Below are positions 37,696 through 55,971 of a stretch of 64,000 bases of DNA, in pieces. How positions within the stretch are numbered: position 1 is the stretch's first letter; each line of letters starts with the position of its first letter. Made by a program: the position numbers and the translations under genes. The stretch spans positions 29,090 through 93,089 of the forward strand of contig JAAZXA010000068.1 of NCBI GenBank assembly GCA_014240385.1, given 5' to 3'. The DNA comes from Methanobacteriota archaeon. Lineage in GTDB: Archaea > Thermoplasmatota > Poseidoniia > Poseidoniales > Poseidoniaceae. Under the pieces are notes generated by a model. It searched no databases, was not told the DNA's origin, and worked only from the letters and a program-made list of their open reading frames with translations.

Positions 37696-37782
37696 CATGT
37701 GGGGTTATCGTTATGTCCATCTCGATTCATGGCTCCATTGCCGACCTCTAATAGGCGGAGCGGGATTTTTTTCGGTGTGTTG
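37696..37782 (-). repeat. 87-nt promoter/leader-like repeat, copy A
   Basis: near-identical to 40303-40390 (2 substitutions plus a 1-nt indel); ends in ACCCCACATG; contains an A7 run and CCTATTAGAGG. Confidence 0.85.
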
Positions 37783-37788
37783 AAAGGT

Positions 37789-39422: not shown

Positions 39423-39821
39423 GTGTGGTGTGTGCGGTTTGGGTTCTGGCAGAGCATTACCTTCACCTACTACGGTCTCGATTCTCCCTTGTTTCTCAAA
39501 TCCTAACCGGAAAGTCCGGTAGTCGGGTAGGTTAAATCCACCTATGATGGTGAATTAGTCCTCTTAATTGAGAATCGGCCTGCGTGGAACTCTGCTTCCT
39601 CTACGGCCATGGGGGAGTCGGCTCTAAGCAACATCAAGTCAAAGTAAGCATCCCCGATGGATTGCTCCATCTTCGTCTGCTTAGATCATGCTATGATATC
39701 GTTCGTAGCGACGCTTTGACTTGAATCGGCTTCGAGCTATCGATTCAGTAGTTGGTGGCCTCTACCACTGCTCGCTATCCGTTAAGGATGAGCATGTGGT
39801 TTTGGCCGTTATACGAGCGGT
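39423..39821 (-). ncRNA. non-coding region F (about 400 nt, structured, unassigned)
   Basis: follows the stop of 39841..40305; opens with AACCGCTCGTA (39815-39821 core); several local hairpins, e.g. ACCGGAAAGTCCGGT; no credible ORF. Confidence 0.3.
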
Positions 39822-39840
39822 TGCGTAAACATTGGCAATC

Positions 39841-40305
39841 TCATTGAGCGACCTGCCGCTTTCGTCTTGCTAAAGGAACTGGTGTTCTTTTGGGCTTGAC
39901 GGTTTTAGCGGCAGGTTGTACTCGGCTTCTGGACGCCTGATTAAACAGGTTAGTCGCAGATGATGTTCTTGCCTTATTCTTCTGCCCCTTGAACTGGGAT
40001 TTCTTGGCATGTGGCTTTGACGCCTTTGCCTTGACAGTTTTCATGTGCTTTCTCCAAGCCTTGATGTGATTATCATAGATTGGATCTGCGAAAACTGCTT
40101 CTGGCACATACCGAGAGACCATACTTCCGATTCGATTCCAGCCACCAAAACTCAATGAATCATTCATTGCGTTTTTGATTTTGGAAACATAGGATGCTGG
40201 AGCATTCTTATTCAGTTTGCTCCAGTGTTCGGAACCCATCTTGGTAACCCAAGTTGGGATGTAGAGTTCTTGCGGGGTTTCGATGTTCTTATTTTGCATA
40301 TTCAT
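39841..40305 (-). CDS. hypothetical protein with Lys/Arg-rich C-terminal tail (154 aa)
   Basis: track ORF; start follows the 88-nt repeat copy B. Confidence 0.7.
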   Translation of the reverse strand: MNMQNKNIETPQELYIPTWVTKMGSEHWSKLNKNAPASYVSKIKNAMNDSLSFGGWNRIGSMVSRYVPEAVFADPIYDNHIKAWRKHMKTVKAKASKPHAKKSQFKGQKNKARTSSATNLFNQASRSRVQPAAKTVKPKRTPVPLARRKRQVAQ

Positions 40306-40390
40306 GGGGGGTTATCGTTATGTCCATCTCGAATCATGGCTCCATTGCCGACCTCTAATAGGCGGAGCGGGATTTTTTTCGGTAGTGTTG
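40303..40390 (-). repeat. 87/88-nt promoter/leader-like repeat, copy B
   Basis: near-identical to 37696-37782; ends at the start codon of 39841..40305. Confidence 0.85.
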
Positions 40391-40400
40391 ATGGGAGAAT

Positions 40401-40778
40401 TTAGTCCTCAGCGATTGTGGGATCTTGAAGCGAATCATTTGCTTCTGCTGTTCCCTTTGCTGGGGACAGAACTTTGGACTCATTGAAGGTCCAACCTAAT
40501 TCCATCATCATGGATAGAATCCATTCAGGTGCTTGACTCCAGTTGCCATGGAACTTGATGTTGCACATGTTGGCGAATTCAATTATCTCGCTTTCTAATG
40601 TGCTTTGTGTTTTGCCATGGGTTGCTGCTGTCGCTGCAATTGCCTGATTAATGGATGCTCCAGATGCTTCTACTTCGAGCAATACTGTGTCCCAAAGGGT
40701 CATCATTGCTGAGTATAGGCTCAGGTATATTCGTTCTGCCATCGTGCTTGTTTGCTTGCTAACTTGTGTGTGTTGCAT
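40401..40778 (-). CDS. hypothetical protein (125 aa)
   Basis: track ORF; start context ACCCCACATG preceded by hairpin GGAAGAC-AAA-GTCTTCC and repeat module copy 1. Confidence 0.7.
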   Translation of the reverse strand: MQHTQVSKQTSTMAERIYLSLYSAMMTLWDTVLLEVEASGASINQAIAATAATHGKTQSTLESEIIEFANMCNIKFHGNWSQAPEWILSMMMELGWTFNESKVLSPAKGTAEANDSLQDPTIAED

Positions 40779-40800
40779 GTGGGGTATGGGAAGACTTTGT

Positions 40801-40841
40801 CTTCCTCATTAGCATAGGTCATAGGGGCCGTAGGCCCTGAC
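40801..40841 (-). repeat. 41-nt promoter-like module, copy 1
   Basis: CTTCCTCATTAGCATAGGTCATAGGGGCCGTAGGCCCTGAC; contains the GGGCC-GTA-GGCCC hairpin and, in minus sense, CCCTATGACC. Confidence 0.8.
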
Positions 40842-41034
40842 CGTTTTAGTCATGTTTTGGTGCTAAGTTTTATTCTACCTCTCGATAGAAACGGCGCAAA
40901 GCAACCTTTGGACTCCTCCCGTAAAGGGTGGTGTGTGTGGTGTTACGGGTGTCCATGGGTCTCTCTCGCCAATAAAGCGAGTTGTAGGCGTACTCCAACG
41001 CCTCGTTGTTCGTCAATGATTTGACTACACCTCA

Positions 41035-41168
41035 TGGTGGACCGTGCTGGATTCGAACCAGCGGCCTCCTAAGACAGACAACTTCGACTCCTTCCGTCCT
41101 GCCCGGGACAGTTCGGTTTTTGTCTTATTCTGTTTCTTAGGCGCTCTTCCTGACTGAGCTAACGGCCC
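41035..41168 (-). tRNA. tRNA-like gene with a 57-nt insertion in the anticodon loop and encoded CCA; identity unresolved
   Basis: reverse complement folds as GGGCCGT/TA/GCTC-AGTCAGGAA-GAGC/G/CCTAA-[64 nt]-TTAGG/AGGCC/GCTGG-TTCGAAT-CCAGC/ACGGTCC/A/CCA. Confidence 0.75.
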
Positions 41169-41193
41169 GTAACGGTGTTTTGAGGAAGTATTT

Positions 41194-41234
41194 CTTCCTC
41201 ATTGGTATAGGTCATAGGGGCCGTAGGCCCTGAC
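41194..41234 (-). repeat. 41-nt promoter-like module, copy 2 (upstream of the tRNA)
   Basis: CTTCCTCATTGGTATAGGTCATAGGGGCCGTAGGCCCTGAC; 3 mismatches to copy 1; followed in minus sense by hairpin GAGGAAG-AAATA-CTTCCTC. Confidence 0.8.
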
Positions 41235-41376
41235 CCATTTGTGTGTGGTTTTTGTGTGTTTGTGAGCGGTTTAGCCTGATTTCCAATCCATACTGACGAA
41301 CTTCCTCGTAAACCAATTCTGGCCTTTCGGCACTCTCGGTTTGCGTAAGAGAGCGAGATCGTTCCCCGTGAGGGGC

Positions 41377-41646
41377 TTAGATCTTCGTAGCTCGCCTTCT
41401 GTTCACCTGGAACCATTGCTGGTACAGGTGCTCTCCAATAACTACTGCTGCAGGGTCGAGCATCGGGTTTCCGCTTGCTAGTGGACGGTCAAAAGACCAA
41501 TCCATGTGCTTACGGTGTTGCCGATATTGCTGTCGCCTGTAACTCAAATAGGGGTGTCCTTCACCGTCAAAGCGGTGTCGGTAACGATATTTTCTTATTT
41601 TTCCCCTCTTCCCAGCATTGGAAATCGTTTGTTGGCTAATTTGCAT
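41377..41646 (-). CDS. possible very basic protein (89 aa)
   Basis: track ORF only; Arg/Tyr/Gln-rich; no PM or SD seen. Confidence 0.4.
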   Translation of the reverse strand: MQISQQTISNAGKRGKIRKYRYRHRFDGEGHPYLSYRRQQYRQHRKHMDWSFDRPLASGNPMLDPAAVVIGEHLYQQWFQVNRRRATKI

Positions 41647-42044
41647 TTATCATACAAGCCCTGAACTACCTCATGTCCGTGGGGCTAATCCACATTGTCC
41701 TTTCGGAGCGTAGAATCACCTAAGCAGCAACCAGCCGCTTTTGCTTCGTAACATATCGGACCAACTGACTAATGCCAGTAGTGATTAAGTCACCAACGAG
41801 GTCTTTTCGTCAATGTTACGGTTTTCGGTGGACTACATGGGAAAGGAGCGATGATAGTCGCTACTTTCTCTCAATGTATATCCGTTAGCCGAGAAGAGGC
41901 ACCAAAAGGTGCGGGTATCTCTATTTCTCGACCCGGTGTCTCGGTGAAGTCCTCTTTCGAGGGATCCTCCGCCTTATCCCCTATCTCTAGGGTTTAGCAG
42001 ATACTTCGTGTAGGCCCTTGAGCCAACCGAGAGAGGGCATTCCT

Positions 42045-42084
42045 GTCCTCATTAGATGAGGTCATAGGAGCCCTAGGCCTTGCC
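42045..42084 (-). repeat. 41-nt promoter-like module, degenerate copy 3
   Basis: GTCCTCATTAGATGAGGTCATAGGAGCCCTAGGCCTTGCC; faces the ORF-free 41650-42040 stretch. Confidence 0.6.
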
Positions 42085-42097
42085 GTAGCAAGGTGGT

Positions 42098-42563
42098 GTG
42101 TGGTATAATTTCTTCGTGGTTTTAGGCCACAGGAGGTATATGAATAGGCCCTTTTACTCTCTTTCCTTTGGATCTAGAGGCCTCAAGCTGCTACTCTTGG
42201 CCTCTTTCTCTAGAAAGAGTGTATTTTGGGTATTTCTTCATGTTCTCCACTGTATTGTGCCACAGGGGGTATATGAATAGGCCACTTGCAGTCAATTTCA
42301 AGATCGCTGAAAGGGCATGATTAGCTTCTCATGCCTTCGCTTTCAATTATTGCTTCAATATGGGTATTTCTTCATGTTCTCCACTGTATTGTGCCACAGG
42401 GGGTATATGAATAGGCCATATTTCGGTAACATCTCCAGATCTCTCCTTCGAAAGCTACTCCTGGCATGGCCGTAGGCCAAACAGGGTGAAATATGGGTAT
42501 TTCTTCATGTTCTCCACTGTATTGTGCCACAGGTGTTATTTGGCAAGGCCGTTTCCGTTAACC
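42098..42563 (+). promoter_or_regulatory. four tandem promoter-like repeats at about 133-bp phasing; the last drives the TFB-like gene
   Basis: TGGGTATTTCTTCATGTTCTCCACTGTATTGTGCCACAGGGGGTATATGAATAGGCC at 42227 and 42360; degenerate copy at 42098; copy at 42493 ends GGTGTTATTTGGCAAGGCC, 28 nt before ATG 42564. Confidence 0.75.
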
Positions 42564-43694
42564 ATGGCGAGTAATGACGATACGGCCAATCAGATGGGGG
42601 CGACTGCTGATTTTTCGTCAATATCGTCTGTCCTTTGTCCTGCATTCGAACAGCCGCCTGGGTGTGCCGTCTCCCTTGCCAAGCAACAAAACTTTGATTC
42701 TTTGTCAGTCGACTCTATGACTGGGAGGGCGTATTGCGGATCATGCGGCGTGGAATTCGTTGTTGACCGTTATCAGGTTAGTCATGAGCAGAAAAAGAGT
42801 GATGATGGGATAGAAACCTACGGATCTGTTCTCTCCAAGTCTGGGAAGCAACGGAATAGGGAACAATCCTTTGACCGCCTGGGCTATCTTTGTATTAGCA
42901 AGTTGGACTTATCTCAAAGTGTGTTGGCACAAGCTACCCGCTACCTGTACGATATGATGGAAGGTGGAGCCGCTAAAGGAGGTCGGGGTTTTCCCCAACT
43001 CGAAGTGGTTGCGGCTTATGTGGCAGGTAGAATGCATAATCAATCCCTTACTCTCGAACATGTTGTTAATATCCATCGAGATTGGATTACAGAAGAAGGG
43101 GAGTTCAAATCGATAAAGGCGGCATCTATGAAATCAGTTAATCGATTGCTGCAGAATATGACTAGGGAAAACATTCTGCCTTACCCCCGCCCTTCTGCAG
43201 ATGATATCATTGGTTCTAATTCGTGGTGCTTGGCTAATCTAGATGAAGTCATTATTCAGAATGCTAAGGAGTTGTCTAATTGCGGAGTCCAAGGTTCCCC
43301 CGATTCTATTGCTGCAGCATCGGTGATGGTGGCTGCGAAGAATAAGCGTGTTGTGAAACCCGGAGATGACTTATCGCGGCCACGAACACAAATGGCCGGA
43401 GAGGAAGATGGGCAGCGTTTAACGCTCGAAGTGATTGCCAAATTGTTTCCTGGCACTACTGCTAGAACTGTAAGGCGAAGAATGAAAGAGATTAGGGATG
43501 TTTTGGAACTTAGGCTACCTCTAACACGAGAGCAAGTAGAGGTTCTTGAAAATCCTGATCCCCGCAAGGTGCGTGTCCGTAATACTGTTGAGGAAGTATT
43601 CAGTCAATTGGATTCGGAATTGGAAGGAAAGATACCATTGACTTCTAAGGATGTAGCAATTCTACGAAAATTGAAAGATTCAAACAAGAGGTAA
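42564..43694 (+). CDS. TFB/TFIIB-like transcription factor (376 aa)
   Basis: track ORF 42486..43694 trimmed to MASNDD. N-terminal Cys pairs (CPAF..GC, CGSCG). Two cyclin-like repeats: RGFPQLEVVAAYVAGRMHNQSLTLEHV and GSPDSIAAASVMVAA...LTLEVIAKLFPGTTARTVRRRMKEI. Confidence 0.7.
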   Translation: MASNDDTANQMGATADFSSISSVLCPAFEQPPGCAVSLAKQQNFDSLSVDSMTGRAYCGSCGVEFVVDRYQVSHEQKKSDDGIETYGSVLSKSGKQRNREQSFDRLGYLCISKLDLSQSVLAQATRYLYDMMEGGAAKGGRGFPQLEVVAAYVAGRMHNQSLTLEHVVNIHRDWITEEGEFKSIKAASMKSVNRLLQNMTRENILPYPRPSADDIIGSNSWCLANLDEVIIQNAKELSNCGVQGSPDSIAAASVMVAAKNKRVVKPGDDLSRPRTQMAGEEDGQRLTLEVIAKLFPGTTARTVRRRMKEIRDVLELRLPLTREQVEVLENPDPRKVRVRNTVEEVFSQLDSELEGKIPLTSKDVAILRKLKDSNKR

Positions 43695-44135
43695 TGTGAT
43701 TTCCCTTTTGGTTTTCTTGGAATCTTTTCTGTATTGCAACAGAACATAATGGATGTCTCTGCGATTGTAGCTTCCGTTTTCATCTGGTTCTGCGGACCAA
43801 CAGGCATACCTTAGTGAGCGGTTTTCTTCCTGCATTAGTTCCAACATGGTTTCAGGGCCAACGCTGTACACTTCCTTGACTTCTCTGAGAGATAATTGCT
43901 CATCTGGAACTAATCGCCAAAGTGTTCGTCTGTATTCTCCTGTTCCATCCTTTGTTCTTTCAACACCTGCTGGATCAAACCTTTCTGGGTATGATGAAAG
44001 GATCCCAGCAATTACTGATTTCCGTTCTTTACCCATTTTGTCTAGTATTCGGTCAAAAGGGAGAATTTCATCTTTGGACTCATGGAAGATTTTCTCAATC
44101 TTTGGGACAAGGCGGTTTTTTGCCTTCCTTGCCAT
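43680..44135 (-). CDS. putative winged-helix protein (151 aa)
   Basis: track ORF; GAGG-type SD upstream of ATG 44135; contains an internal sense-strand AAACCGCTCAC at 43814-43822. Confidence 0.6.
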   Translation of the reverse strand: MARKAKNRLVPKIEKIFHESKDEILPFDRILDKMGKERKSVIAGILSSYPERFDPAGVERTKDGTGEYRRTLWRLVPDEQLSLREVKEVYSVGPETMLELMQEENRSLRYACWSAEPDENGSYNRRDIHYVLLQYRKDSKKTKREITLPLV

Positions 44136-44428
44136 CAGGCCTCATCCCCCTCGTCCTTCCTAAGTTGTGTGAGTTCTTGCACCAGCCGCCAGACTATGTC
44201 GTCCATTGTCTCGCCCCTGTTGCCGAGGCTATTCAAGATTTCATGCGTTCTTTGCTTAACATTGATGTGTTTCAACTTTGAGCCGTCTGCCGCAATGTTC
44301 CCCATGAGACCAACTGTGTGTATCTGTCGTATAAGCGACTCGGAGGGATTGGGATGGGATGTGAAAGGCTGTGATACTTGGGCAAGAGGGGAGAGAGTTT
44401 ATGCACCGTGCGCTGAAAGGCGCCCATA

Positions 44429-44635
44429 ATGAAAGCAGAAGATCCTCTAGTGCAAACCTTACTCAAGACCCTGATGGAGTTAGAAAAGGTGGATGAAAAA
44501 GACTTGAGACACATGATTGAAGTTGCTGGACAACTATGTACCCAACTCGAGCGGCCGGAGAGTATTGCGGCCTTGATGTTTCAGGTGATGGATGTTTCCA
44601 AAGCGGTTGATTCCTCGATTACTGGTTATGCCTGA
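44429..44635 (+). CDS. hypothetical protein (68 aa)
   Basis: track ORF; TTTATGCACC box begins 31 nt upstream of the ATG (leaderless-type spacing). Confidence 0.6.
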   Translation: MKAEDPLVQTLLKTLMELEKVDEKDLRHMIEVAGQLCTQLERPESIAALMFQVMDVSKAVDSSITGYA

Positions 44636-44639
44636 ATCC

Positions 44640-44654
44640 TTCATACGACTGAAC
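44640..44654 (+). promoter_or_regulatory. promoter-like box P1 TTCATACGACTGAAC
   Basis: ATACGACTGAAC begins exactly 27 nt before ATG 44670. Confidence 0.6.
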
Positions 44655-44669
44655 ACCTTCGGCTCTCAC

Positions 44670-47111
44670 ATGAGAGTAGGTTTTCTCCTGTTAGGCAACG
44701 CCCCGTTTTACTTGACTGGGTATGGTACGCAATTGAAAATTCTAGGCGACAAATTAATTGAAGAGGGTTACCCTGTAGGTCATGTTGTTGACTTTGGATA
44801 TGCTGGACAACATATGGAATGGGAAGGGCGAACTGTTTACCCCCATGATAAGTTGCCAGGAACTCTGACTGCTGATACAATGAAATCGCACATCCTGTCT
44901 TTTCAACATAAACACGGTTTAGATCAAGTCGTTGTTTGGTCTTTGGGTGATACATGGAAATTGAGTAAGTTGAATCAAGCCATCAAGCACCCGTATTGGA
45001 TTTGCATGACTCCTGTTGATTCGGATAGGATGGATGGCGGTTCAATTACCGCTCACAATAATTCATGGTTGCAAGCCGCAATATCGAAACATGGTGTTGA
45101 AATTATGAGGGCTGCTGGATTAACTGGCATCAATTACCTCCCCCACATGGTCGGAGATTCCTTTGTGCCAATAAATCAAGAGTATGCTAGAGCCGCATGT
45201 GGTTTGCCTCAAGATCCCTTTGTCGTTGGTTTCTTTGGAGACATGAGTATGCGTAAATGCCCTCATGAGAATCTAGAGGCTTTTGCAATTTTCAAGCAGT
45301 CCGTACCGAACTCCCTCCTCTTCATCAAGACTAGTAACCATGTCCAACAGGTTCAATTCCATGAATTAATTCATAGGCTGGGTTTGCAGAATTCGGTTAT
45401 CACAATTCCCCCCTATGATTCCCTTCTAGGGCTAACGGATTATGAGATGGCACGAGCCCTCTCCAGTTTGGATGTGCTTCTTCATGTGAGTTCCCAAGAG
45501 GGTTTTGGAATCATACAAGTTGAAGCCCAAATGTGCGGAGTACCTGTTATCAACATGGATTTTGGTTCCCAAAGAGAGCTTCAAGGAAATCCCGAACTGT
45601 TGGTTCCTGTGGAACAGATGAATCGTGTTGATGGTGGAATGAAGGTTCCATTTGCGGCACCTGAGAAGATAGCGGAGAAGTTGATGTCTGTTTACAACCA
45701 TCTCAATAAAGTCAGCAGTCTTTCCGATGGTTTTATCGTCAAAAGGGCAATCGAACATGCAGAAACATACAGGGTTGATAAGGTGTGGGACGAGTATTAC
45801 AAGCCATTCCTCAAAGGGATGATTGGATCTATTGATGCGGTTTCTAGAGTTGTTATTCCCCCCCGTTCATTGAAGAAGGTGGGCATTGTTTCTACATTCG
45901 ATACTGAATGTGGAATTGCTACTTACACCCACATGCTTGCTACAAAATTGGTAGAGCAGGGAATGGAAGTTGTTGTCTTTTCGGAAACAGACGGTGAGTT
46001 TGAAGAAGTTCTTGAACATGAAGGTATTCGGCACCATCGATGTTGGAATCGAATGAATCCAAACACCAAATTATTCCGTGAACTTGTTGAGAGGGAGGGT
46101 TGCGATATTATCCACTTCCAGCACGAATGGCAGTTGTTCAAGAGTACGGGGTTGATTGAGGAACTTCGAGATGTACAAGTTAAGAAAGCCATCACATATC
46201 ATACCCCTCAGCCCGACCAAATGCGTAAATTGCTAAGGATTACTGATTCAACCGTTGATGCCCACATAACGCACTGGCCGGAGACTACCCAGTTGTTGCC
46301 AATGGTTTGTGAACATGGGATGTTGAATGGTGTCCAAACCATCAAACATGGTGTCCTTGAGCATTCACTTGTCCAGGACAAGTCTGTTCTGGGCATTCCT
46401 GAAAAGGTTCCAGTATTCTTCACCTTTGGTTTTGCTTCTTCAAGCAAGGGGTTGGATTATTTCATTGATGCGGCCATCCAAGCTTCTAAGAATCCAAATT
46501 GCCGGTACTTCGAAGTTGTAATTGCAATGTCCTATCATCCCGATTGGGATATGAGCGACTTGGCGAAGGAGATTAGAGCGAAGGCTGGTTCTGTTGATTT
46601 CATTACGCTTATTGAAGGATGGATGGATGATGATTCACTTGATGTTCATGCGGCTGCTAGTGACTACCTTGTTTTCCCCTACCGTTGGTACCAACAGATC
46701 CATAGTGCGTCTGGCGCAGTTAGACGCGTTTTGGGTCATGGTAAGCCCGTCTTGGTTACAGATGAGGGAAGGCTTCGAGATTTGACTGGAGGCGTACACG
46801 GTTGGAAGTTCGGCCAATACGATGTAGATGGCTTCGCTGCTGCTATTGTTGATGCGTCTTCATTACTTGGCAGTCCTCGGTATCAAAAGATGGCCCAAGC
46901 GGTCAAGGATTACTCTTCTTTGACCTCGTGGGATAATATTGCTGCGCAACACATTCAACTTTACGATAAGGTCTGTGGCTTGTGGTCGGTGGTTCCAGAG
47001 GGTATGTCACGAGCCCAAAGAGTTGAGATTGATTTACCATTCCCAGAATTACTTGATTCGGATGTTCAAGTGGATCGTTGGCATTTGCATAGGGGTGACG
47101 AAGAAGAATGA
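44670..47111 (+). CDS. large two-domain glycosyltransferase (GT-B, GT4-like; 813 aa)
   Basis: track ORF 44592..47111 trimmed to MRVGFLLLG; VSSQEGFGIIQVEAQMCGVPVI E-x7-E region; second Rossmann-like half begins KVGIVSTFDTECGIATY. Confidence 0.8.
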   Translation: MRVGFLLLGNAPFYLTGYGTQLKILGDKLIEEGYPVGHVVDFGYAGQHMEWEGRTVYPHDKLPGTLTADTMKSHILSFQHKHGLDQVVVWSLGDTWKLSKLNQAIKHPYWICMTPVDSDRMDGGSITAHNNSWLQAAISKHGVEIMRAAGLTGINYLPHMVGDSFVPINQEYARAACGLPQDPFVVGFFGDMSMRKCPHENLEAFAIFKQSVPNSLLFIKTSNHVQQVQFHELIHRLGLQNSVITIPPYDSLLGLTDYEMARALSSLDVLLHVSSQEGFGIIQVEAQMCGVPVINMDFGSQRELQGNPELLVPVEQMNRVDGGMKVPFAAPEKIAEKLMSVYNHLNKVSSLSDGFIVKRAIEHAETYRVDKVWDEYYKPFLKGMIGSIDAVSRVVIPPRSLKKVGIVSTFDTECGIATYTHMLATKLVEQGMEVVVFSETDGEFEEVLEHEGIRHHRCWNRMNPNTKLFRELVEREGCDIIHFQHEWQLFKSTGLIEELRDVQVKKAITYHTPQPDQMRKLLRITDSTVDAHITHWPETTQLLPMVCEHGMLNGVQTIKHGVLEHSLVQDKSVLGIPEKVPVFFTFGFASSSKGLDYFIDAAIQASKNPNCRYFEVVIAMSYHPDWDMSDLAKEIRAKAGSVDFITLIEGWMDDDSLDVHAAASDYLVFPYRWYQQIHSASGAVRRVLGHGKPVLVTDEGRLRDLTGGVHGWKFGQYDVDGFAAAIVDASSLLGSPRYQKMAQAVKDYSSLTSWDNIAAQHIQLYDKVCGLWSVVPEGMSRAQRVEIDLPFPELLDSDVQVDRWHLHRGDEEE

Positions 47112-47335
47112 CTGAATGGAAGAAGGAAGATGTTGGCAAGGAAACTCCCGTTTTTATCGAGGGAGTGAAGGTGATTGATATGATTGTTGAAGTAATGTTG
47201 CCAGATGGGCAGGTTATTATTGGGCCTCAATTGGCGTGTGCTCATATTTTTGCTCGTTATTCAATGGTTCCTGCAATGGAGATGGTTAGCGAAGCTACAC
47301 AGAAAACAATTGAAAGCATGGAGGGGGATGCATGA
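47108..47335 (+). CDS. hypothetical protein (75 aa)
   Basis: track ORF; ATGA overlap with the glycosyltransferase stop. Confidence 0.65.
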   Translation: MTEWKKEDVGKETPVFIEGVKVIDMIVEVMLPDGQVIIGPQLACAHIFARYSMVPAMEMVSEATQKTIESMEGDA

Positions 47336-47418
47336 CGCCAGGAGTGGTATACAAGTGTGTGAAATGTGGTGTTTGGAGTATGGGTACTCACAAATGCGTT
47401 CAAGAGGAGGAAGAGTAG
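47332..47418 (+). CDS. zinc-ribbon micro-protein (28 aa)
   Basis: MTPGVVYKCVKCGVWSMGTHKCVQEEEE; GGAGGGGGA SD; ATGA overlap upstream, stop abuts ATG 47419. Confidence 0.45.
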   Translation: MTPGVVYKCVKCGVWSMGTHKCVQEEEE

Positions 47419-48177
47419 ATGTTATCCGTAATCTGTTGTACTGCCCGTCAAGAGGCAGGTATCAAAGAGATGTTGAAGAGTTTGGAAAAGCAGACGCATA
47501 CTGATTTCGAGTTTGTTTTGGTTGATAAGGCATGGGAATCTCGCAACGGGGCTTTCATCCTGATGCTGGATAATTCGTCGGTTAATTGCAAATACATCAA
47601 AGACGAATCCAAACATGGATTTGTTTCGATTGCCTCTGCTCGGAACCTAGCAGTTGAGTCCTCCGATGGAGATTGGATCGTTTCAGTTGATGATAGGACG
47701 CTGTTCTACCCCGATACCTTGGAACTACATGCGCAAGCATTTGAGGAAGGTTGGGATGGTATGGCGGGTTTTTCTGATTTCCACCACGAAGGCGTTTTTG
47801 CTGAGAAAGAACCAGACAAAGAGGATGAGAGGGGAGATAACCCCCAGTCAGGACATGGGAAATATGCATCAAGTAATTTCTTTGGCTATCACATGGGGTT
47901 CTCGAAGAAGGCTTGGGCTAAGGTCCGGGGTTTCGATGAGAACTATGATGGTGTTTACGGGTGGGAAGATTGTGATTTTGGTTTGAGGCTCGGTAATGCG
48001 GGAGCGGTTGTGAAATTGGGAACCCAATGTCGTGTGCTGCAGATTCGAGACGCTGCACATGGCGAGGTTTTCCAGAAGGATGATGCGCCACATGCAATTA
48101 CTGGAGGTCACATCAGATGGCGTAATGACCGAATGTATAGGCTCACATTAATGAACAGGGGCAGGTGCAGGTGGTAA
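47419..48177 (+). CDS. family-2-like glycosyltransferase (252 aa)
   Basis: track ORF; LSVICCTARQEAGIKEMLKSLEKQTHTDFEFVLVD N-terminal GT-A pattern, VSVDD acidic motif; GAGGAGGAAG SD. Confidence 0.7.
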   Translation: MLSVICCTARQEAGIKEMLKSLEKQTHTDFEFVLVDKAWESRNGAFILMLDNSSVNCKYIKDESKHGFVSIASARNLAVESSDGDWIVSVDDRTLFYPDTLELHAQAFEEGWDGMAGFSDFHHEGVFAEKEPDKEDERGDNPQSGHGKYASSNFFGYHMGFSKKAWAKVRGFDENYDGVYGWEDCDFGLRLGNAGAVVKLGTQCRVLQIRDAAHGEVFQKDDAPHAITGGHIRWRNDRMYRLTLMNRGRCRW

Positions 48178-48178
48178 T

Positions 48179-48313
48179 ATGAAAACAAATGGACGCAGAT
48201 ATCGCAGATTAATGGCGGCTTGGAAGAAGAATAGAAGAGGGCGTTCGAAGCCTGTAGCTTCTAAGCGTCAAGGCCGTCCGGTAAGCAAGAAGAGAACCCC
48301 TCGGAGGAGATGA
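48179..48313 (+). CDS. highly basic micro-protein (44 aa)
   Basis: MKTNGRRYRRLMAAWKKNRRGRSKPVASKRQGRPVSKKRTPRRR fills the gap between neighbouring genes exactly. Confidence 0.45.
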   Translation: MKTNGRRYRRLMAAWKKNRRGRSKPVASKRQGRPVSKKRTPRRR

Positions 48314-48314
48314 A

Positions 48315-48950
48315 ATGGTTGATGGTCTTCTGCAGCATGATGAATATTCTGATGTTTGTCCAATCTGCAAGGAAATTGTCACCGAAGAAGAATGGCCTGT
48401 GCCGATTTCGAGAATGGAAGAACGGACAGGGCAGAAGTTTCCCCCTTGCGTAGTATGTGGTTCTGATGAAGACATCCATTACAATTACCTGACTATGCCT
48501 CAGAAGGATGGAAGAGGATTCAATCACAATCTTTTGCTGTGGTGCGAATCCTGCGGAAGTGGTACGCAACATGATGGGTTTGATGTATTGACAGGTAAGC
48601 CCAAGATCGCCCTGCGATTACCGAATGAGTTTTCCAATGATTCGATGGAGAAGGCGAAGGAACGGCTTGAAGCGGCTTTGGCCGCAGGTGAACAGGATGA
48701 AGAACTCGCCCAGGAGATCCAAGCAATGTTAGTCATGCGTGGTTTTTTCCGAGTCCACCATTACCCTTGCTTAGATGATGGTTGGGATGCGATGGGGCAT
48801 GGAGTCCGACCACTAGAAAGAAACGAGATTATGAAGAGGTTCTATGAATGGTCTAATGATGAGGCCATAGGTGTGGCCGAACTGTCTGACAATCCTTTGA
48901 CGAAGAATAAATCTCCTAGGACTCGAAAGCGTGGGAAGCGTTGGTGGTAA
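48315..48950 (+). CDS. multi-zinc-finger protein (211 aa)
   Basis: track ORF; GGAGGAG SD; CPICKE, CVVCGS, CESCGS. Confidence 0.7.
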   Translation: MVDGLLQHDEYSDVCPICKEIVTEEEWPVPISRMEERTGQKFPPCVVCGSDEDIHYNYLTMPQKDGRGFNHNLLLWCESCGSGTQHDGFDVLTGKPKIALRLPNEFSNDSMEKAKERLEAALAAGEQDEELAQEIQAMLVMRGFFRVHHYPCLDDGWDAMGHGVRPLERNEIMKRFYEWSNDEAIGVAELSDNPLTKNKSPRTRKRGKRWW

Positions 48951-48958
48951 CGAACTGA

Positions 48959-48973
48959 TTATATGACTGAACC
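48959..48973 (+). promoter_or_regulatory. promoter-like box P2 TTATATGACTGAACC
   Basis: ATATGACTGAAC begins exactly 27 nt before ATG 48988. Confidence 0.6.
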
Positions 48974-48987
48974 ACTTGAACCAAATC

Positions 48988-49146
48988 ATGCGAGACCCAA
49001 CCTACAAAATCGCCCTAGTCTTTGAAGATGCAGAAGGAAACAATGTTACTCTGGCAACAGATGTACCTGAGAACCAAGTCGGATTGGCACATGCTTCAAT
49101 GTTGAAGCTTGCTGCTGGACTCAAAGGCAAGAGCGACGACGAGTGA
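48988..49146 (+). CDS. hypothetical protein (52 aa), below track cutoff
   Basis: MRDPTYKIALVFEDAEGNNVTLATDVPENQVGLAHASMLKLAAGLKGKSDDE; start positioned by box P2. Confidence 0.5.
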   Translation: MRDPTYKIALVFEDAEGNNVTLATDVPENQVGLAHASMLKLAAGLKGKSDDE

Positions 49147-49189
49147 TTAAAAGCGTAAATGCTAAGGGGCAGAGCCTCTTCGCCTGTTC

Positions 49190-49729
49190 ATGCTCAGCCA
49201 ACCGCATTCTGCTGTAAATCACATGAATTACAGTATTCTTGGTTCACATACTGTTCAAGATGCGGCCAATAATGCGAAGAATAATTTCTCTCCTTCGCAG
49301 AGATCTAGACATGCTCGAACCGCATATCAGAATAATCATCAGAATCTAATGCAACCGGCTATTGCTAACAATCCTCATCTTGCAGATGTTTTGAGAGGTT
49401 CTCAAGATCCAATGGGCGCCTCTTGGAATACTGGCGCTTTTCTCATCGCCGCAGGCGTGGGTGGGTTATTGTCGGTGGTGTCGTCGTCGAAGGACTTGAA
49501 GAGTTTTGGGAAATCGAAGAAGACACAAAGGAGAAACATTACCATTGGTACTATGATTGCTGCTTGTGGGCTGCTTGCAGTTGGATATTCGAAGAATTCT
49601 GAATTAATTCCCGCAGGTATCGGACTTCTTTCTGGCAATGTGGTTGGCAACAACTTGTGGTCTATCGGCTCCCGCGATTCTGGATTCGACTTTACGCCTT
49701 CGAAGTCCCTATTTGAGTTGGACTACTAG
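49190..49729 (+). CDS. membrane protein (179 aa; start uncertain, alternative ATG 49223)
   Basis: track ORF; TM segments GAFLIAAGVGGLLSVV and IGTMIAACGLLAVG. Confidence 0.65.
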   Translation: MLSQPHSAVNHMNYSILGSHTVQDAANNAKNNFSPSQRSRHARTAYQNNHQNLMQPAIANNPHLADVLRGSQDPMGASWNTGAFLIAAGVGGLLSVVSSSKDLKSFGKSKKTQRRNITIGTMIAACGLLAVGYSKNSELIPAGIGLLSGNVVGNNLWSIGSRDSGFDFTPSKSLFELDY

Positions 49730-49739
49730 ATGGGAATGG

Positions 49740-49754
49740 TTCAAACGGCTGAAC
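49740..49754 (+). promoter_or_regulatory. promoter-like box P3 TTCAAACGGCTGAAC
   Basis: AAACGGCTGAAC begins exactly 27 nt before ATG 49770. Confidence 0.6.
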
Positions 49755-49769
49755 CGGCTGGCATTGTCT

Positions 49770-50195
49770 ATGTCGGCAGAAGATGACTCGCACACATTAC
49801 GCATCTTTGGGTTACTTTTCGTAAACTCATTTCTGATTGGTGCGGCAGTTGGGATCCACCAGCAGGGGCTTTGGTTCCCTGAAGAAAGTAATTGGGCTAA
49901 GATTGCAGGCCTCTATATGATGAGTGCTACATTTATTCAAATGGTTGCATTTATGATTTACAAATTGTTCTTCCAGGAGCGACTTGAAGATCAATCGTAT
50001 ATTCAAGGGCTTCATTCCTCTATGCGTCGTAGTATGAAGAAAATTAATGCGGAGACTCAACAATTCCAAGTGGGTCTCGAATTGGAAGCTAAGAGAGCCC
50101 AACAGCAGAAGCAGATGCAATTGCTACGAAATAAGGTCATGGAAGATGATGATGAGTCTGGCCTTAGCGAGAAGATGATGATTGAACTTCGGTGA
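49770..50195 (+). CDS. membrane protein with C-terminal coiled coil (141 aa)
   Basis: track ORF 49638..50195 trimmed to the ATG set by box P3; TM segments LLFVNSFLIGAAVGI and LYMMSATFIQMVAFMIY. Confidence 0.65.
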   Translation: MSAEDDSHTLRIFGLLFVNSFLIGAAVGIHQQGLWFPEESNWAKIAGLYMMSATFIQMVAFMIYKLFFQERLEDQSYIQGLHSSMRRSMKKINAETQQFQVGLELEAKRAQQQKQMQLLRNKVMEDDDESGLSEKMMIELR

Positions 50196-50204
50196 GGCTA
50201 CCTT

Positions 50205-50414
50205 ATGCGAGGGCTTCTTTTTCCAAGTGAATCTGCTCATCAAGCAGAGATAATGGCTGAGGCTTTTGCCAATAAATCGATATGGGACATGCGATGGTAC
50301 AAATTCAAACTTTGGTTCTACACTAGCGTAACTGCTTTCATCTTCATGTTCTTTACATCCCTTATTGAATGGTTCTTTGATTTCAGTCTTTTCAAGTGGA
50401 TGTTCGGGCTGTAG
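50205..50414 (+). CDS. small membrane protein (69 aa)
   Basis: track ORF; GGTGAGG SD; TM segment FYTSVTAFIFMFFTSLIEWFF. Confidence 0.65.
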   Translation: MRGLLFPSESAHQAEIMAEAFANKSIWDMRWYKFKLWFYTSVTAFIFMFFTSLIEWFFDFSLFKWMFGL

Positions 50415-50416
50415 GT

Positions 50417-50431
50417 TTCATACGGCTGAAC
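50417..50431 (+). promoter_or_regulatory. promoter-like box P4 TTCATACGGCTGAAC
   Basis: ATACGGCTGAAC begins exactly 27 nt before ATG 50447. Confidence 0.6.
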
Positions 50432-50446
50432 CGTCTCACATTGTCC

Positions 50447-51211
50447 ATGACGCTAAGCGGATTCATTGCAATGCCTCGAAAACCGGGGAAAACAAAGATT
50501 GGGCAGATCCTCAAGAATATTGGATTCAAGGATAAGGGAGCAGCAGGAAATATGTGGGTCTTTGGTAAGACTCGGTTCCGTGTAGATGTGGTTGATTTTA
50601 GGGATGATTTGAGAGATCATGACGCTGAATGGGTTGAAGAAGTTGGATGGGATGATAATTGGGCCGTCCGTATTGCTGTCAATCATTCTAACAGAACAGA
50701 TGAAAATTACATCTTGTGGCATTCGATTCTAGTCATAGCCGCTGAGTGCTTAGGCGTTAGAGAAATTTGGTTAGATGGCGGCACAGGCATTCCACAGCAA
50801 CCGTACACACTTCGAGAGTTGTTTCCTGAATTGAAATCTGATGAAGGAGAAGACTTGATTGAAGAATCCGAAGCCGCCCCTGTTCTAGTCGACAAGGCAG
50901 AAGTCTTGGAGCTTCCAGATATTGAAACACCTGCTGAGCCTGTTTTGGTTCCATCTGAGCCTGAGCCTGAGCCTGAGCCTGAACCTGTGCCTGAGCCTCA
51001 AACAGAATCGTCCGAAGAGGATTACGATTCCTGGGGATGGGATGAGGATGAGGATGAGGATGAGGATGAGGATGAGGATGAGGACGATTCATGGAATGAG
51101 GATGAGGATGAGGATGAGGATGAGGATGAGGACGAGGATGAATCCGAAGAAGAGAATGAATCCGAAGAGAATGAATCCGAAGAAGGTGTTGATGTAATCA
51201 CTGAATGGTGA
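50447..51211 (+). CDS. protein with (EP)n and (DE)n low-complexity C-terminal half (254 aa)
   Basis: track ORF 50396..51211 trimmed to the ATG set by box P4. Confidence 0.7.
   Translation: MTLSGFIAMPRKPGKTKIGQILKNIGFKDKGAAGNMWVFGKTRFRVDVVDFRDDLRDHDAEWVEEVGWDDNWAVRIAVNHSNRTDENYILWHSILVIAAECLGVREIWLDGGTGIPQQPYTLRELFPELKSDEGEDLIEESEAAPVLVDKAEVLELPDIETPAEPVLVPSEPEPEPEPEPVPEPQTESSEEDYDSWGWDEDEDEDEDEDEDEDDSWNEDEDEDEDEDEDEDESEEENESEENESEEGVDVITEW
50957..50998 (+). repeat. hexanucleotide tandem repeat (GAGCCT)x7, imperfect
   Basis: read directly; encodes EPEPEPEPEPVPEP. Confidence 0.9.
51041..51142 (+). repeat. two runs of (GATGAG)n hexanucleotide repeat
   Basis: 51041-51085 and 51096-51142; encode DEDEDE... 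tracts. Confidence 0.9.
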
Positions 51212-51948
51212 GTTCTTTGGTTGAAGGGGGTGCAATGGCGTGGGGAGGCCTCCTTTACCTCAAGCACCTTTGGGATTCTTGGAAAAGTCACCGAATAGGA
51301 ATATATGGCCTGTGGGCGTGTGGTAAGACCACCCTGAATCGTTATTTGAATACCTCTGGGGATCTCGAAGAAGATACTGCCCGTATGACTAGCACCGCTC
51401 ACCCCTATGATAAGAAGAAGAAGCAGTATGTTCCACCAAATGCAACCCGCAAGAGAATTCATGTTTTGTCCGAAGCAAATCAGTCATTCCGTAGAACCAT
51501 TCTCTCGTCTGATATTGGAGGCCAGTCCGAATATTTCAATCTCTGGGTTCGAGATTTGGTGTTGCGTGATGTTGAAGTAATCATCTATCTGGTTGATTCA
51601 AGGGATGATCCAGATGGGCTTCAAGAGGCAACATTTCGAGACTTTACGAGAATTATTGCCGAGAGAGATTTCCGTTTTACTGAACGAAAATTGAGGAAAA
51701 AGGCCAGAAATTATCAGCCGAAGGTGGTAGCCCTTGTTGCCAATAAATCGGACCTTTGGCTCAATCCAGACGAACGGGCGTATTACGAGGGGTCTGGCAT
51801 TGGCAGGCATCCAATTTTTGATGCTTACAGGCCGCACTTGGTACGGCTACAGAGAGCCGGTATTCCTACTTTGAAGCGAAGTATTTCAGCCCTCCATGGG
51901 TATGATGTGGAGCGATTAATATGGGATTGCTTGAAGGCGAAGTCGTGA
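51205..51948 (+). CDS. Arf/Arl/Sar-like small GTPase (247 aa; alternative start ATG 51235)
   Basis: G1 GLWACGKTT, G3 DIGGQSEYFNLW...IIYLVDSRD, G4 ANKSD, G5 SAL; hydrophobic N-terminal helix MAWGGLLYLKHLWDSW, as in Arf. Confidence 0.75.
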   Translation: MVSSLVEGGAMAWGGLLYLKHLWDSWKSHRIGIYGLWACGKTTLNRYLNTSGDLEEDTARMTSTAHPYDKKKKQYVPPNATRKRIHVLSEANQSFRRTILSSDIGGQSEYFNLWVRDLVLRDVEVIIYLVDSRDDPDGLQEATFRDFTRIIAERDFRFTERKLRKKARNYQPKVVALVANKSDLWLNPDERAYYEGSGIGRHPIFDAYRPHLVRLQRAGIPTLKRSISALHGYDVERLIWDCLKAKS

Positions 51949-51959
51949 TATGACTAAAC
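51945..51959 (+). promoter_or_regulatory. promoter-like box P5 GTGATATGACTAAAC
   Basis: ATATGACTAAAC begins exactly 27 nt before ATG 51975. Confidence 0.55.
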
Positions 51960-51974
51960 CACTTGGCAACTACC

Positions 51975-52748
51975 ATGTCGATGTTTGGCGATGAGGCTTC
52001 GAGTGGTCTGGAGGATTCTCATTTTATGTCGAATGTGAGGTTCACCTTCGATGACAATCCGGATCCATACAAACGAAGAAAGATAAATATGAAAAACGCG
52101 TATGGCGTTTTGAAACCAAAGCGTAGATGGAGGATTGGTTCCCCCGTCCATAACAATGCAGGACAATGTTGTGTTACTGGTATTGATTTGAGGGCTTTGG
52201 GTGCTGAAGCTTACAACAGGGCTTTACTTGACCCGCATACCCTGCAGCCTGTGGATGATGGTCGAACATTGATGACTGAGTTCTTTCTAGATCATTTGAC
52301 GGGCAAACCAGTTCAGTTTGCGGCTCAATCTGGAGTTACTACTGGTTTGCCGCTTCGTTCGTCTTATTGTCCAGGATTATTGCAGATTTATTGGTTGTAT
52401 ACTCAATGGAAATATGAAACCGATATGGAAGAACAGGGTAGGAATAGTTCATTCCTTAGAAGTAGAGGTATTGAATTAAAGCCTTTGAGAAGAAAGGATG
52501 TCAAAAAGCGCAATAGACCCTTGTTAGTCGATGAAATTGAGCCTTTTTTTGCTAAGGTCAAAATGCATGAAGGGCAGGGCATAACCATTGTTGAGTATTC
52601 TAATCCTGATGAAAATTCTAACTTCTTCGGAGAGATTGATTTAGTACACATAACATTGGATTTGCGGAAGATGCGAAGCGAGGAATTAAATAGGGAAAAG
52701 ACAAAGGGGGGCAACCCCTCCGATAATCAAAGCGAGGTTATACCATGA
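51975..52748 (+). CDS. hypothetical protein (257 aa)
   Basis: track ORF 51963..52748 (TTG) trimmed to the ATG set by box P5. Confidence 0.7.
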   Translation: MSMFGDEASSGLEDSHFMSNVRFTFDDNPDPYKRRKINMKNAYGVLKPKRRWRIGSPVHNNAGQCCVTGIDLRALGAEAYNRALLDPHTLQPVDDGRTLMTEFFLDHLTGKPVQFAAQSGVTTGLPLRSSYCPGLLQIYWLYTQWKYETDMEEQGRNSSFLRSRGIELKPLRRKDVKKRNRPLLVDEIEPFFAKVKMHEGQGITIVEYSNPDENSNFFGEIDLVHITLDLRKMRSEELNREKTKGGNPSDNQSEVIP

Positions 52749-53449
52749 GCTTCTACAATCCAAACCCCACACCACAAAATACGAACGCTAATGTCGGTAA
52801 TCCGTTCTCTAAGGCACCTCCAGTGCCAACTGGAGCACCAATGGGTATGCAGGGTATGCAGCCAATGGGACAACAAAACCCCTATGGTATGTATCAACCA
52901 ACGCCACAGGCTTTGTGGGCTCAACTTGGTTATCAAACCGAGCCCTCTTTGGTTGAACTCATTCGAGATTTAGTTGTACAGAATTCTTTGGATTCTGCGC
53001 GATTCGCCGTTGAGGGGGGTTTCTTCGCTGATATTGCAATTATGGAGCAACTGATTGATTATCGCTTGAAGGAGTTCTTCACCAATTTCCGATTAGAAAT
53101 ACACCAAGACGCTACGCAAGAAGGTGCTATGTTCATCAAACCTGCTCCAGAGCAGCCTACGGATGAAGGAAAGAGATTGGCAACCCTCACCCAAAGTGAT
53201 TTGACTGCGAAGGTTGAGGAAATCAAGGGTGCAATTCGAGATAATCTATTGCAGACTGCGGATCAGAAAATTGAGTTGCATATCCAGGCGTCTGCTTTGG
53301 CTACGCAACAAGGATTCATGGGCTCTCTTCTAGCAGAGGACGCTAATGGGCAAAGAGGCGGCATTCTTTCTGCTACTGCAGGAGTTGCAGGAGGCATTCT
53401 AAGATCTGCTGCAGGTCTTCCACCTGCGCCAAAACCACCGGGGGCTTGA
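52745..53449 (+). CDS. hypothetical protein with Q/P/M/N-rich N-terminus (234 aa)
   Basis: track ORF; GAGGT SD; ATGA overlap with the upstream stop. Confidence 0.7.
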   Translation: MSFYNPNPTPQNTNANVGNPFSKAPPVPTGAPMGMQGMQPMGQQNPYGMYQPTPQALWAQLGYQTEPSLVELIRDLVVQNSLDSARFAVEGGFFADIAIMEQLIDYRLKEFFTNFRLEIHQDATQEGAMFIKPAPEQPTDEGKRLATLTQSDLTAKVEEIKGAIRDNLLQTADQKIELHIQASALATQQGFMGSLLAEDANGQRGGILSATAGVAGGILRSAAGLPPAPKPPGA

Positions 53450-55190: not shown

Positions 55191-55200
55191 CCCCCCCCCC
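55191..55200. repeat. C10 homopolymer tract in an intergenic region
   Basis: read directly (gctga cccccccccc atgaaag). Confidence 0.9.
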
Positions 55201-55839: not shown

Positions 55840-55840
55840 C

Positions 55841-55966: not shown

Positions 55967-55971
55967 TGGGA

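Follow-up and report, generated by a model that had tools for sequence, protein, structure and literature searches.

We analysed a 64,000-nucleotide (nt) stretch of contig JAAZXA010000068.1 (hereafter, the window), and in particular the 3-kb region at 39423-42563 that separates a minus-strand gene block from a plus-strand one, which we call the hub. The hub encodes a folded RNA of approximately 800 nt, an intron-containing transfer RNA (tRNA) and two small proteins. Judging from its sequence and that of its relatives, we believe with high confidence that the large RNA (RNA-1) is a new structured RNA that has not been described before. We read the hub as the non-coding head of a leftward (minus-strand) gene array in an archaeal-type marine virus of approximately 128 kb, and we put the probability of this reading at about 0.6. 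An initial annotation had described the region as poor in coding sequence, with three credible open reading frames (ORFs) and long structured stretches left unassigned. The region is indeed largely non-coding and the stretches are under selection for RNA structure, but only two of the three ORFs hold, and the one at 41377-41646 (89 amino acids, aa) does not.

A folded RNA of the hub and a probable second one

Homologues of the TFB-like protein encoded beside the hub and of the 125-aa hub protein were found on marine metagenome contigs, including those of Tara Oceans, and the exact proteins are encoded on a 128,049-bp NCBI contig. More loci were obtained by a search with an alignment of the TFB-like protein. 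They form a close group (L001, L006 and L008-L013), in which this protein is approximately 75% identical, and a distant group (L014, L015 and L016), in which it is approximately 45% identical. The entire hub arrangement is repeated in related contigs. We read the window as part of a large marine virus of an archaeon on account of the TFB fold, the tRNAs that contain introns and encode their CCA, and some leaders of the Shine-Dalgarno type. Further pointers to a virus are that L016 comes from a 127.6-kb viral contig of IMG/VR and that one window protein has weak matches to virion proteins.

RNA-1 was examined in an alignment (A3) of nine sequences, which represent about four independent lineages. 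RNAalifold predicted 176 base pairs on this alignment, 54 of which carry compensatory changes. In an independent count, 97.4% of the cells were paired and none of 500 column shuffles reached the observed covariation. When the 3' partners were slid by one to three columns as a control, compensatory pairs fell to 4-9 and pairing to 32-48%. The fold of the single sequence had a z-score of -5.39. For at least 14 of the pairs, G-U is the commonest form, and because these would be A-C mismatches on the opposite strand, RNA-1 must be read from the minus strand. A long-range helix (GAUUUCCAAU with AUUGGAAAUC) with four covarying positions closes a 3' domain of approximately 370 nt, and several hairpins on covarying stems are capped by GAAA tetraloops. 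The invariant blocks cluster in the 3' domain, and part of the 5' half is variable or deleted. Core helices with good support extend over 42031-41278; the presumed ends of the RNA were placed from the flanking motifs ACCACAC (42104-42098) and AACCGCTC (41271-41264).

The conservation of this region is also higher than that of its neighbour. From the upstream module copy (copy 3, described below) to AACCGCTC at 41271, approximately 900 nt can be aligned, with 83% identity to the close group and approximately 71% to the distant group. This range of 71-83% is higher than a neighbouring protein with 45-76% identity would lead one to expect, and in relatives whose TFB-like protein is only 45% identical RNA-1 still keeps approximately 71%. 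The alignment contains 1- and 2-nt insertions or deletions (indels), and in L001 no gene is called at the position of the 89-aa ORF. RNA-1 therefore shows both properties by which we recognise a structured non-coding RNA, namely compensatory pairs beyond those of the controls and the lack of a conserved frame. The stretch 41650-42040, which had been singled out as an ORF-free unit, is structured as supposed, but it does not stand alone and is only the 5' half of the RNA; together with the 89-aa ORF and probably with module copy 3, it makes up one minus-strand RNA.

No Rfam family accounts for this RNA. The 4227 models of Rfam 15, including those of GOLLD, ROOL, OLE, RNase P, group I and group II introns and the signal recognition particle, gave no match to RNA-1 even at E <= 10, either in the window or in the distant relative L015, and only scattered chance matches were returned. 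An Infernal/Rfam scan of the hub, as the initial annotation had proposed, found the tRNA as its sole match and placed neither 41650-42040 nor 39423-39821 in a family. In exact-pattern scans of IMG/VR, two RNA-1 blocks led to a single viral contig, and the module and a first RNA-1 block led to nothing. RNA-1 did not turn up in the phage collection or in the scanned GTDB genomes either.

The region at 39423-39821 probably holds a second structured RNA (RNA-2). Its fold has a z-score of -7.39 and its minimum free energy structure is identical to the centroid. Among 97 predicted pairs, 7 are compensatory, compared with 0-2 in slid controls. RNA-2 is kept in the close group with indels of whole hairpins (36, 19, 17 and 7 nt), L014 and L015 share its core, and no frame is conserved, as the indels are not multiples of three. 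It starts right after AACCGCTC, which the initial annotation had seen at the opening of this region and which was found at 39822-39815, and it stops at AAACCGCAC before a 108-aa gene. By comparison, three control units that are headed by the same motif without an ATG gave z-scores of -0.5 to -1.7 and are not unusually structured. The support for RNA-2 is weaker than that for RNA-1, because its available sequences are closer to one another. The coordinates of all features are collected in Table 1.

Table 1. Features of the hub and its surroundings (window coordinates).
Feature	Position	Strand	Observation
RNA-1, approximately 800-825 nt	41273-42097	-	Covariation, fold z-score, conservation
RNA-2, approximately 385 nt	39432-39814	-	Fold z-score, indels, compensatory pairs (probable)
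Module copy 1	40800-40847	-	5' of 125-aa gene
Module copy 2	41193-41240	-	5' of tRNA
Module copy 3, degenerate	42043-42090	-	Probably in 5' part of RNA-1
Direct-repeat array, four units approximately 133 nt apart	42110-42555		Module core CCCCTGTGGC (minus sense) beside AT-rich boxes of TATATGAA type
AACCGCTC directly after RNA-1	41264-41271	-	Next bases ACA
AACCGCTC heading RNA-2	39815-39822	-	Next bases GTA, not ATG
Isolated CCCTATGAC	59188-59196	-	31 nt upstream of tRNA-Lys
Intron-containing tRNA	41038-41168	-	Rfam RF00005, 48.9 bits; 64-nt insert in anticodon arm
Spacer after hub tRNA	40848-41037	-	First ~90 nt (41037-40950) conserved
125-aa protein gene	40401-40778	-	Conserved; matches no known family
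154-aa protein gene	39841-40305	-	Placed elsewhere in relatives
89-nt repeat	40303-40391		96.6% identical to 37696-37783; leader of 154-aa gene; plus-strand T7 run
89-aa ORF, spurious, inside RNA-1	41377-41646	-	No start codon; stops and frameshifts in 8/8 relatives
TFB/TFIIB-like gene, divergent	42564-43694	+	Pfam, AlphaFold, Foldseek

Modules and repeats of the hub

The three-copy module of the initial annotation was recovered as a family of direct repeats, in which the second copy is 92% and the third 67% identical. The 25-mer core GGTCATAGGGGCCGTAGGCCCTGAC occurs twice in the window against 0.00 expected (none in 100 shuffles). Both hairpins that had been described, GGGCC-TAC-GGCCC and GGAAGAC-AAA-GTCTTCC or GAGGAAG-AAATA-CTTCCTC, are visible. 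A fourth GGCCGTAGGCC also exists, but at 42468-42478 and not at 42463-42475; of the three occurrences of GGCCNNNGGCC in the 64 kb, two lie in modules and the third is at this site. The layout of the module, approximately 45 nt in length, is a GC hairpin or palindrome, a box A (CCYCTRTGRC) and, 7 nt further, a box B (AATGAGGR). The GC element is GGGCC-TAC-GGCCC in the window and GCC-N3/4-GGC, CCTAGG or CCATGG elsewhere. The GAGG of box B forms the 5' strand of a hairpin and pairs with a downstream CCUC in most copies; the partner strand varies by copy (GTCTTCC, CTTCCTC, CCTC or CCCTCCC).

The modules are conserved in the relatives, where they precede different cargos; their absence from related genomes, which the initial annotation had named as a ground for refuting it, was thus not observed. 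The window has RNA-1, the tRNA and the 125-aa gene as cargos. In L001, a 41-codon ORF follows one module, and another leads into a long leader that belongs to the 125-aa gene. For L011 and L014 the cargo is a closed hairpin domain of approximately 100 nt, followed by an RNA-2 homologue. These results show that a conserved module stands 5' of each interchangeable unit, which agrees with the earlier claim that they stand upstream of a gene, the tRNA and the ORF-free stretch, except that copy 3 seems to lie inside RNA-1. Helix 1 (42092-42079), which is upstream of copy 3, covaries, and the box B GAGG of this copy pairs with the CCUC at 42036-42033 in the downstream RNA. For these two reasons, copy 3 at least appears to be transcribed. 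Very GC-rich hairpins (e.g., GCCCCTCCGAAGGTTTCGGCCTTCGGGGGGGC) were observed just 5' of modules in L001 (8219-8300) and L014 (7119-7170 and 8040-8100), and they might serve the unit before them as a 3' end or as a terminator-like element.

Between RNA-1 and the TFB-like gene lies the tandem array, which had also been noted before. It consists of three units with spacings of 134 and 133 nt plus a partial first unit. Tandem Repeats Finder reports no array here, because only approximately 60 of every 133 nt are conserved. Similar arrays are present in L001, L011, L014 and L015. A pattern search placed the box A core almost exclusively in the hub and always in minus orientation, in the window and in these four loci. 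Seven copies of the core in the same orientation lie within 1.8 kb, and four of them are regularly spaced. Because module and tandem repeat have one core in common, the "promoter module" and the array, which had been listed as separate elements, are a single family. When read rightward, the repeat units look like archaeal promoters: behind a purine-rich core comes TATATGAA, TACATAAA or TATAAAAA. In the last unit, a TTATTT box precedes the start codon (ATG) of the TFB-like gene by 25-30 nt, which fits an archaeal promoter with a B recognition element (BRE) and a TATA box.

A serious rival to our reading is that the modules are DNA promoters, used perhaps by the viral TFB with the TATA-binding protein and RNA polymerase of the host, so that the gene, the tRNA and the non-coding stretch would each have a leftward transcript of their own. 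We consider this rather unlikely, although it is the best placed of the alternatives. The modules stand 5' of separate, interchangeable units in every genome, and a TFB-fold protein is encoded next door. An exact copy of CCCTATGAC precedes tRNA-Lys by 31 nt, as the initial annotation had noted, and its placement by chance is unlikely because there are approximately 120 such positions against 4^9 possible 9-mers. In the repeats before the TFB-like gene, box A holds a BRE-like position beside TATA-like boxes. An archaeal promoter, however, would be expected to have a TATA box of approximately 8 nt centred approximately 26 nt upstream of the start with the BRE just upstream, and after the box A of the modules no clear AT-rich, TATA-like element is found at the usual distance; a canonical promoter role found no clear support. 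In addition, copy 3 appears to be part of a transcript, as described above; copy 2 follows RNA-1 directly with no leftward T-run between them; and the orientation from core to TATA-like box in the repeats points rightward, opposite to the cargo of the modules. Because the 87 motif-led genes described below show no upstream promoter signal, we treat promoter activity as an interpretation and not as a finding.

Less probable still, in our opinion, is that the repeats and modules are replication-origin iterons bound by an initiator, with the structured stretches being incidental; such an origin would still be compatible with RNA genes. Repeats that could serve as the initiator-binding sites of an origin are present in the seven core copies of one orientation, four of them regularly spaced, and these lie at the divergence of two gene blocks, near the cumulative GC-skew minimum at 37 kb. 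The core may also resemble archaeal origin-recognition-box cores of the CCACAGG type. The GC-skew analysis that had been suggested did not help this idea: the cumulative skew turns at 37 kb and 54 kb, and since both points coincide with switches of the coding strand, they are not independent evidence for an origin. No AT-rich unwinding element is present in the hub, whose minimum GC content in 80-nt windows is 0.36 compared with 0.275 for the lowest value of the window at 53.5 kb, and no initiator gene was identified nearby. The compensatory base changes reflect selection on RNA pairing, which an origin would leave unexplained. The most AT-rich stretch of the window is 53510-53640 (GC content 0.275-0.30), which is located between the rightward and the next leftward gene block at the peak of the cumulative GC skew and might itself be a candidate for an alternative origin or terminus.

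The gene-boundary motif and a proposed scheme of expression

The motif that flanks both RNA-1 and RNA-2 punctuates the whole minus-strand array. AACCGCTC has 55 copies against 1.2 expected, all on the minus strand, and the shorter ACCGCTCA has 92 copies. In window 1-39100, 87 copies directly abut the ATG (CCGCTCATG) of consecutive minus-strand genes; examples are 39079-39072, 38075-38068 and 3864-3857. The motif (consensus ACCRCWC) comes right after the stop codon of the preceding gene without further spacer, the base after AACCGCTC is a purine in 54 of 55 cases, and the motif is retained in distant relatives whose proteins are approximately 45% identical. Upstream of position -12, the 87 CCGCTCATG sites have no information content, and thus there is no TATA box or BRE for each motif-led gene. 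The motif also stands 4 nt before the intron-containing tRNAs of L001 and L014, and the degenerate forms ACCACAC, ACCGCAC and ACCCCAC precede RNA-1, tRNA-Lys and hub protein genes. Because it heads tRNA and RNA genes as well, the motif is not only a translation signal. It would be a site of processing or else a minimal initiator, and leaderless mRNAs would result in both cases. A second class of gene starts is found in 42564-53449 (plus strand) and 54018-63511 (minus strand), where the genes have GGAGG-type leaders 5-10 nt before the start.

Some further observations concern the motif. At 29379, 11781 and 11390 (minus strand), AACCGCTC is followed by ACG in place of ATG; a role of these ACGs as start codons was rejected, as the frames close after 26, 15 and 57 codons, respectively. 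Two of these three units share a 27-nt hairpin element, GGUGUCC(A/U)AUCCUUGGACGGCACCAAC. GGATGAGG was considered as a second motif before ATG and rejected, since it is a coding Asp/Glu repeat. The counts of leftward T-runs match expectation, with no avoidance that would be a sign of one giant transcript, and a scan for sigma-70 promoters and intrinsic terminators stayed at chance level, which is expected for an archaeal system. In the literature, the motif strings gave only chance matches in unrelated papers.

We propose that the units are read leftward, each starting just after an ACCRCWC motif that a purine follows, and that the module is transcribed as a 5' leader, because the GAGG of its box B supplies the 5' strand for the hairpin that opens the next unit. 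Besides being transcribed in this way, the modules would be bound by a sequence-specific factor, with a DNA promoter or operator as the rival to be taken seriously. One factor would recognise box A in two settings, the leaders (as RNA or as DNA) and the repeats in front of the TFB-like gene, and the RNA genes and the TFB-like gene would thereby be coupled in their expression. RNA-1 would accumulate during infection as a stable trans-acting particle, in analogy with GOLLD and ROOL, and it may act on the unusual gene-expression system of the virus itself.

Several points weigh against this picture. Many helices of RNA-1 are invariant, because only about four independent lineages are available, and these helices are thus without support from covariation. 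The helix that would join the ends of RNA-1 (42072-42068 with 41277-41273) shows variation in just one of its strands, and compensatory changes are few in RNA-2. We infer the ends of the RNAs, their abundance and even their independence from sequence, and the function of the large RNA is guessed by analogy. The identity of the box A factor and its level of action, DNA or RNA, are likewise conjectural. A search of RNA-1 and RNA-2 for antisense to ACCGCUCAUG found no conserved match, only a 6-nt CAUGAG in an invariant hairpin loop, which is unconvincing; because neither RNA has conserved antisense to ACCGCUC, a direct guide role is unsupported.

A bolder form of the scheme, which we regard as a long shot, is a private viral gene-expression system. 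ACCRCWC with its purine would punctuate approximately 90 genes, tRNAs and RNA genes and produce leaderless mRNAs, by cleavage or by initiation at minimal promoters. RNA-1 would be the catalytic or scaffolding core of this system, e.g., a re-wired RNase-P-like ribozyme, and its expression, from the array's head, would go along with that of the viral TFB.

Still more doubtful is that RNA-1 is itself a highly divergent, possibly circularly permuted, known ribozyme, the best candidate being RNase P RNA, which would process viral tRNA and mRNA precursors. The invariant segments CGAGGAAGUUCGUC (alignment columns 866-880) and ACAGAAGGCGAGCU (columns 766-779) can pair over 8 bp, and they resemble two conserved regions of the M1 RNA of E. 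coli, CR-I (GAGGAAAGUCCGG) and CR-V (ACAGAACCCGGCUU), that pair as helix P4. RNA-1 has several GAAA tetraloops and the virus encodes tRNAs with leaders. The order of the two segments is reversed, however, instead of running colinearly from CR-I to CR-V, and an unbiased local alignment of the CR regions of M1 scores unrelated places in RNA-1 equally well. RNA-1 is approximately twice the size of archaeal RNase P RNAs, and no Rfam model matches it. A group II intron was also considered and rejected: by eye, neither intron boundaries (GUGYG, exons) nor a 34-nt domain-V-like hairpin with an AGC triad nor a domain VI with a bulged A was seen, in line with the lack of an Rfam match.

There is only a slim chance that RNA-1 and RNA-2 are cis-acting leaders of the riboswitch or attenuator type for downstream genes. 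Both RNAs are 5' of genes on the same strand, and the hub has no leftward T-run terminator. RNA-1 is constant while its follower varies (module and tRNA in the window, a protein gene in L014), it finishes with a closing-helix arrangement, after which comes the punctuation motif, and its length of approximately 800 nt far exceeds that of known leaders, all of which are contrary to this idea. That the conserved stretches are coding or decayed coding sequence is hardly credible: the 89-aa ORF and an 85-aa ORF at 41159-41416 exist, the latter gene-called in identical contigs, but the frame is destroyed in all relatives while the nucleotides are conserved, with 1- and 2-nt indels and compensatory substitutions in helices. 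Both ORFs were dropped from the annotation as false.

Neighbouring genes and comparison with known systems

Proteins of the TFB/TFIIB family have an N-terminal zinc ribbon followed by two cyclin-fold repeats, and the product of the divergent gene beside the hub appears to belong to this family on the basis of its predicted structure. The Pfam TFIIB score was 21.7 bits, under the cut-off of 23.6, and the N-terminal part of the protein contains CxxC motifs. The AlphaFold model had a mean predicted local distance difference test (pLDDT) score of 66.8, which is moderate confidence, and its best Foldseek matches were TFIIB, the TFB of P. woesei (1ais_B) and Brf (E = 1.7e-7 to 1e-5). A profile of the protein found nothing among PDB sequences, and there was no detectable match to it in the phage collection.

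The hub tRNA scores above the 29 bits or more that we required of a cloverleaf covariance model, and its CCA is encoded (down to 41035). ARAGORN misses this gene by default and in intron mode (-i) reports a 57-nt intron at position 32/33. The program calls it Gln(CUG), a tentative identity in view of a G3:U70 pair and an odd anticodon loop. At the intron boundary, a fold with a 7-bp helix, an AA bulge, a 4-bp helix and an asymmetric loop is relaxed in comparison with the canonical bulge-helix-bulge. The intron-containing tRNA of the relatives is approximately 7 kb away and has a different body, and its ARAGORN identities vary between genomes (Gln, Ala and Ile). Every genome has an element of approximately 90 nt downstream of this tRNA (window 40950-41037, L001 1105-1200, L014 2170-2266) with a hairpin AGGCGT-N6-ACGCCT and the end ...GAGAGACYCATGG. 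In the window, tRNA-Lys and tRNA-Arg are 12-16 kb from the TFB-like gene; just downstream of that gene, tRNA-Lys(CTT) and tRNA-Arg(GCG) are found at 11088-11162 and 12132-12206 in L014 and at 11072-11146 and 12081-12157 in L015. The tRNA-Arg of the window (55297-55371, minus strand) begins right after the stop codon of the upstream gene (55372), with zero spacer. A large serine recombinase with Resolvase and Recombinase domains (57564-58385, minus strand) lies approximately 700 nt downstream of tRNA-Lys on the same strand.

Hub order is rearranged among the genomes, and the units appear to be mobile as cassettes with ACCGCTC-motif borders. The 154-aa gene, for example, is located between RNA-2 and the 125-aa gene in the window and after the 108-aa gene in relatives (L001 6183-6576, L006 4391-4835). 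Both copies of the 89-nt repeat (40303-40391 and 37696-37783) lie just 5' of minus-strand genes. Other window proteins include glycosyltransferases, DNA methyltransferases, phosphoadenosine phosphosulfate (PAPS) reductase-like proteins, an Arf-like GTPase and the serine recombinase. The Arf-family small-GTPase domain (51205-51948, plus strand; Pfam E = 1.6e-5) is unusual for a virus of prokaryotes. Gene 50396-51211 contains a long (GATGAG)n repeat (51040-51135) that gives an Asp/Glu-rich tract. An exact-protein look-up of the 839-aa glycosyltransferase gave no record, nucleotide and protein searches of the phage collection gave no matches, and two scans of GTDB genomes gave no match, so that neither a host copy nor a provirus turned up.

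To our knowledge, beyond ribosomal RNA, introns and RNase P, few classes of non-coding RNA exceed 500 nt and have an elaborate conserved structure. OLE, GOLLD and ROOL each proved structurally remarkable. Our searches of Rfam 15, the literature and the phage collection found no large ornate RNA described in an archaeal-type virus. In a divergent clade of approximately 128-kb marine viruses, RNA-1 is more strongly conserved than the proteins encoded beside it, and it heads an array of approximately 39 kb in which nearly every gene starts right after one 8-nt motif. It is therefore a well-defined candidate for structure determination, and it offers a handle on the expression of approximately 90 tightly packed genes that have neither Shine-Dalgarno sequences nor visible promoters.

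Transcript punctuation by tRNAs is known from mitochondria, and nonanucleotide promoters are known from single-subunit RNA polymerases. The array described here is similar in that its genes run in one direction over a long distance with a short signal at each boundary, but the signal is an 8-nt sequence and not a tRNA, and it is found in a virus of archaeal type. Marine archaeal tailed viruses, the magroviruses, are known to have TFB genes (PMC10768690). A virus-encoded TFB-fold protein is shared with these viruses, and the TTATTT box before its gene is shared with archaeal BRE/TATA promoters, whereas the modules of the hub lack such an AT-rich box; the described member of the Aoguangviridae has a GC content of 31.5% and a genome of 92 kb (PMC10768690), in contrast to 45% and approximately 128 kb here. 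With RNase P RNA, RNA-1 shares a pairing of GAGGAAGUUCGUC with ACAGAAGGCGAGCU that is reminiscent of P4, GNRA loops and tRNA genes in the same genome; it differs in the reversed order, the double size and the lack of an Rfam match, and the similarity is statistically weak.

By behaviour, the closest analogues of RNA-1 seem to be the phage RNAs GOLLD and ROOL. Studies have shown that GOLLD is longer than 800 nt, occurs in viruses of prokaryotes, often beside tRNA genes, and is well conserved in its 3' part and less so in its 5' part, and that ROOL is a large complex viral RNA near tRNA islands (PMC12286853). RNA-1 is likewise virus-encoded and longer than 500 nt and adjoins a tRNA gene, although only in the lineage of the window. 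With its approximately 800 nt and mostly 3' invariant blocks, it is particularly similar to GOLLD. On the other hand, ROOL has approximately 580 nt and is bacterial, the host range of GOLLD differs from that of an archaeal-type virus, and oligomeric cages are a trait of these phage RNAs. Because the covariance models of GOLLD and ROOL do not match it, RNA-1 is not a member of either family, and we believe that it resembles them in size, viral origin and setting.

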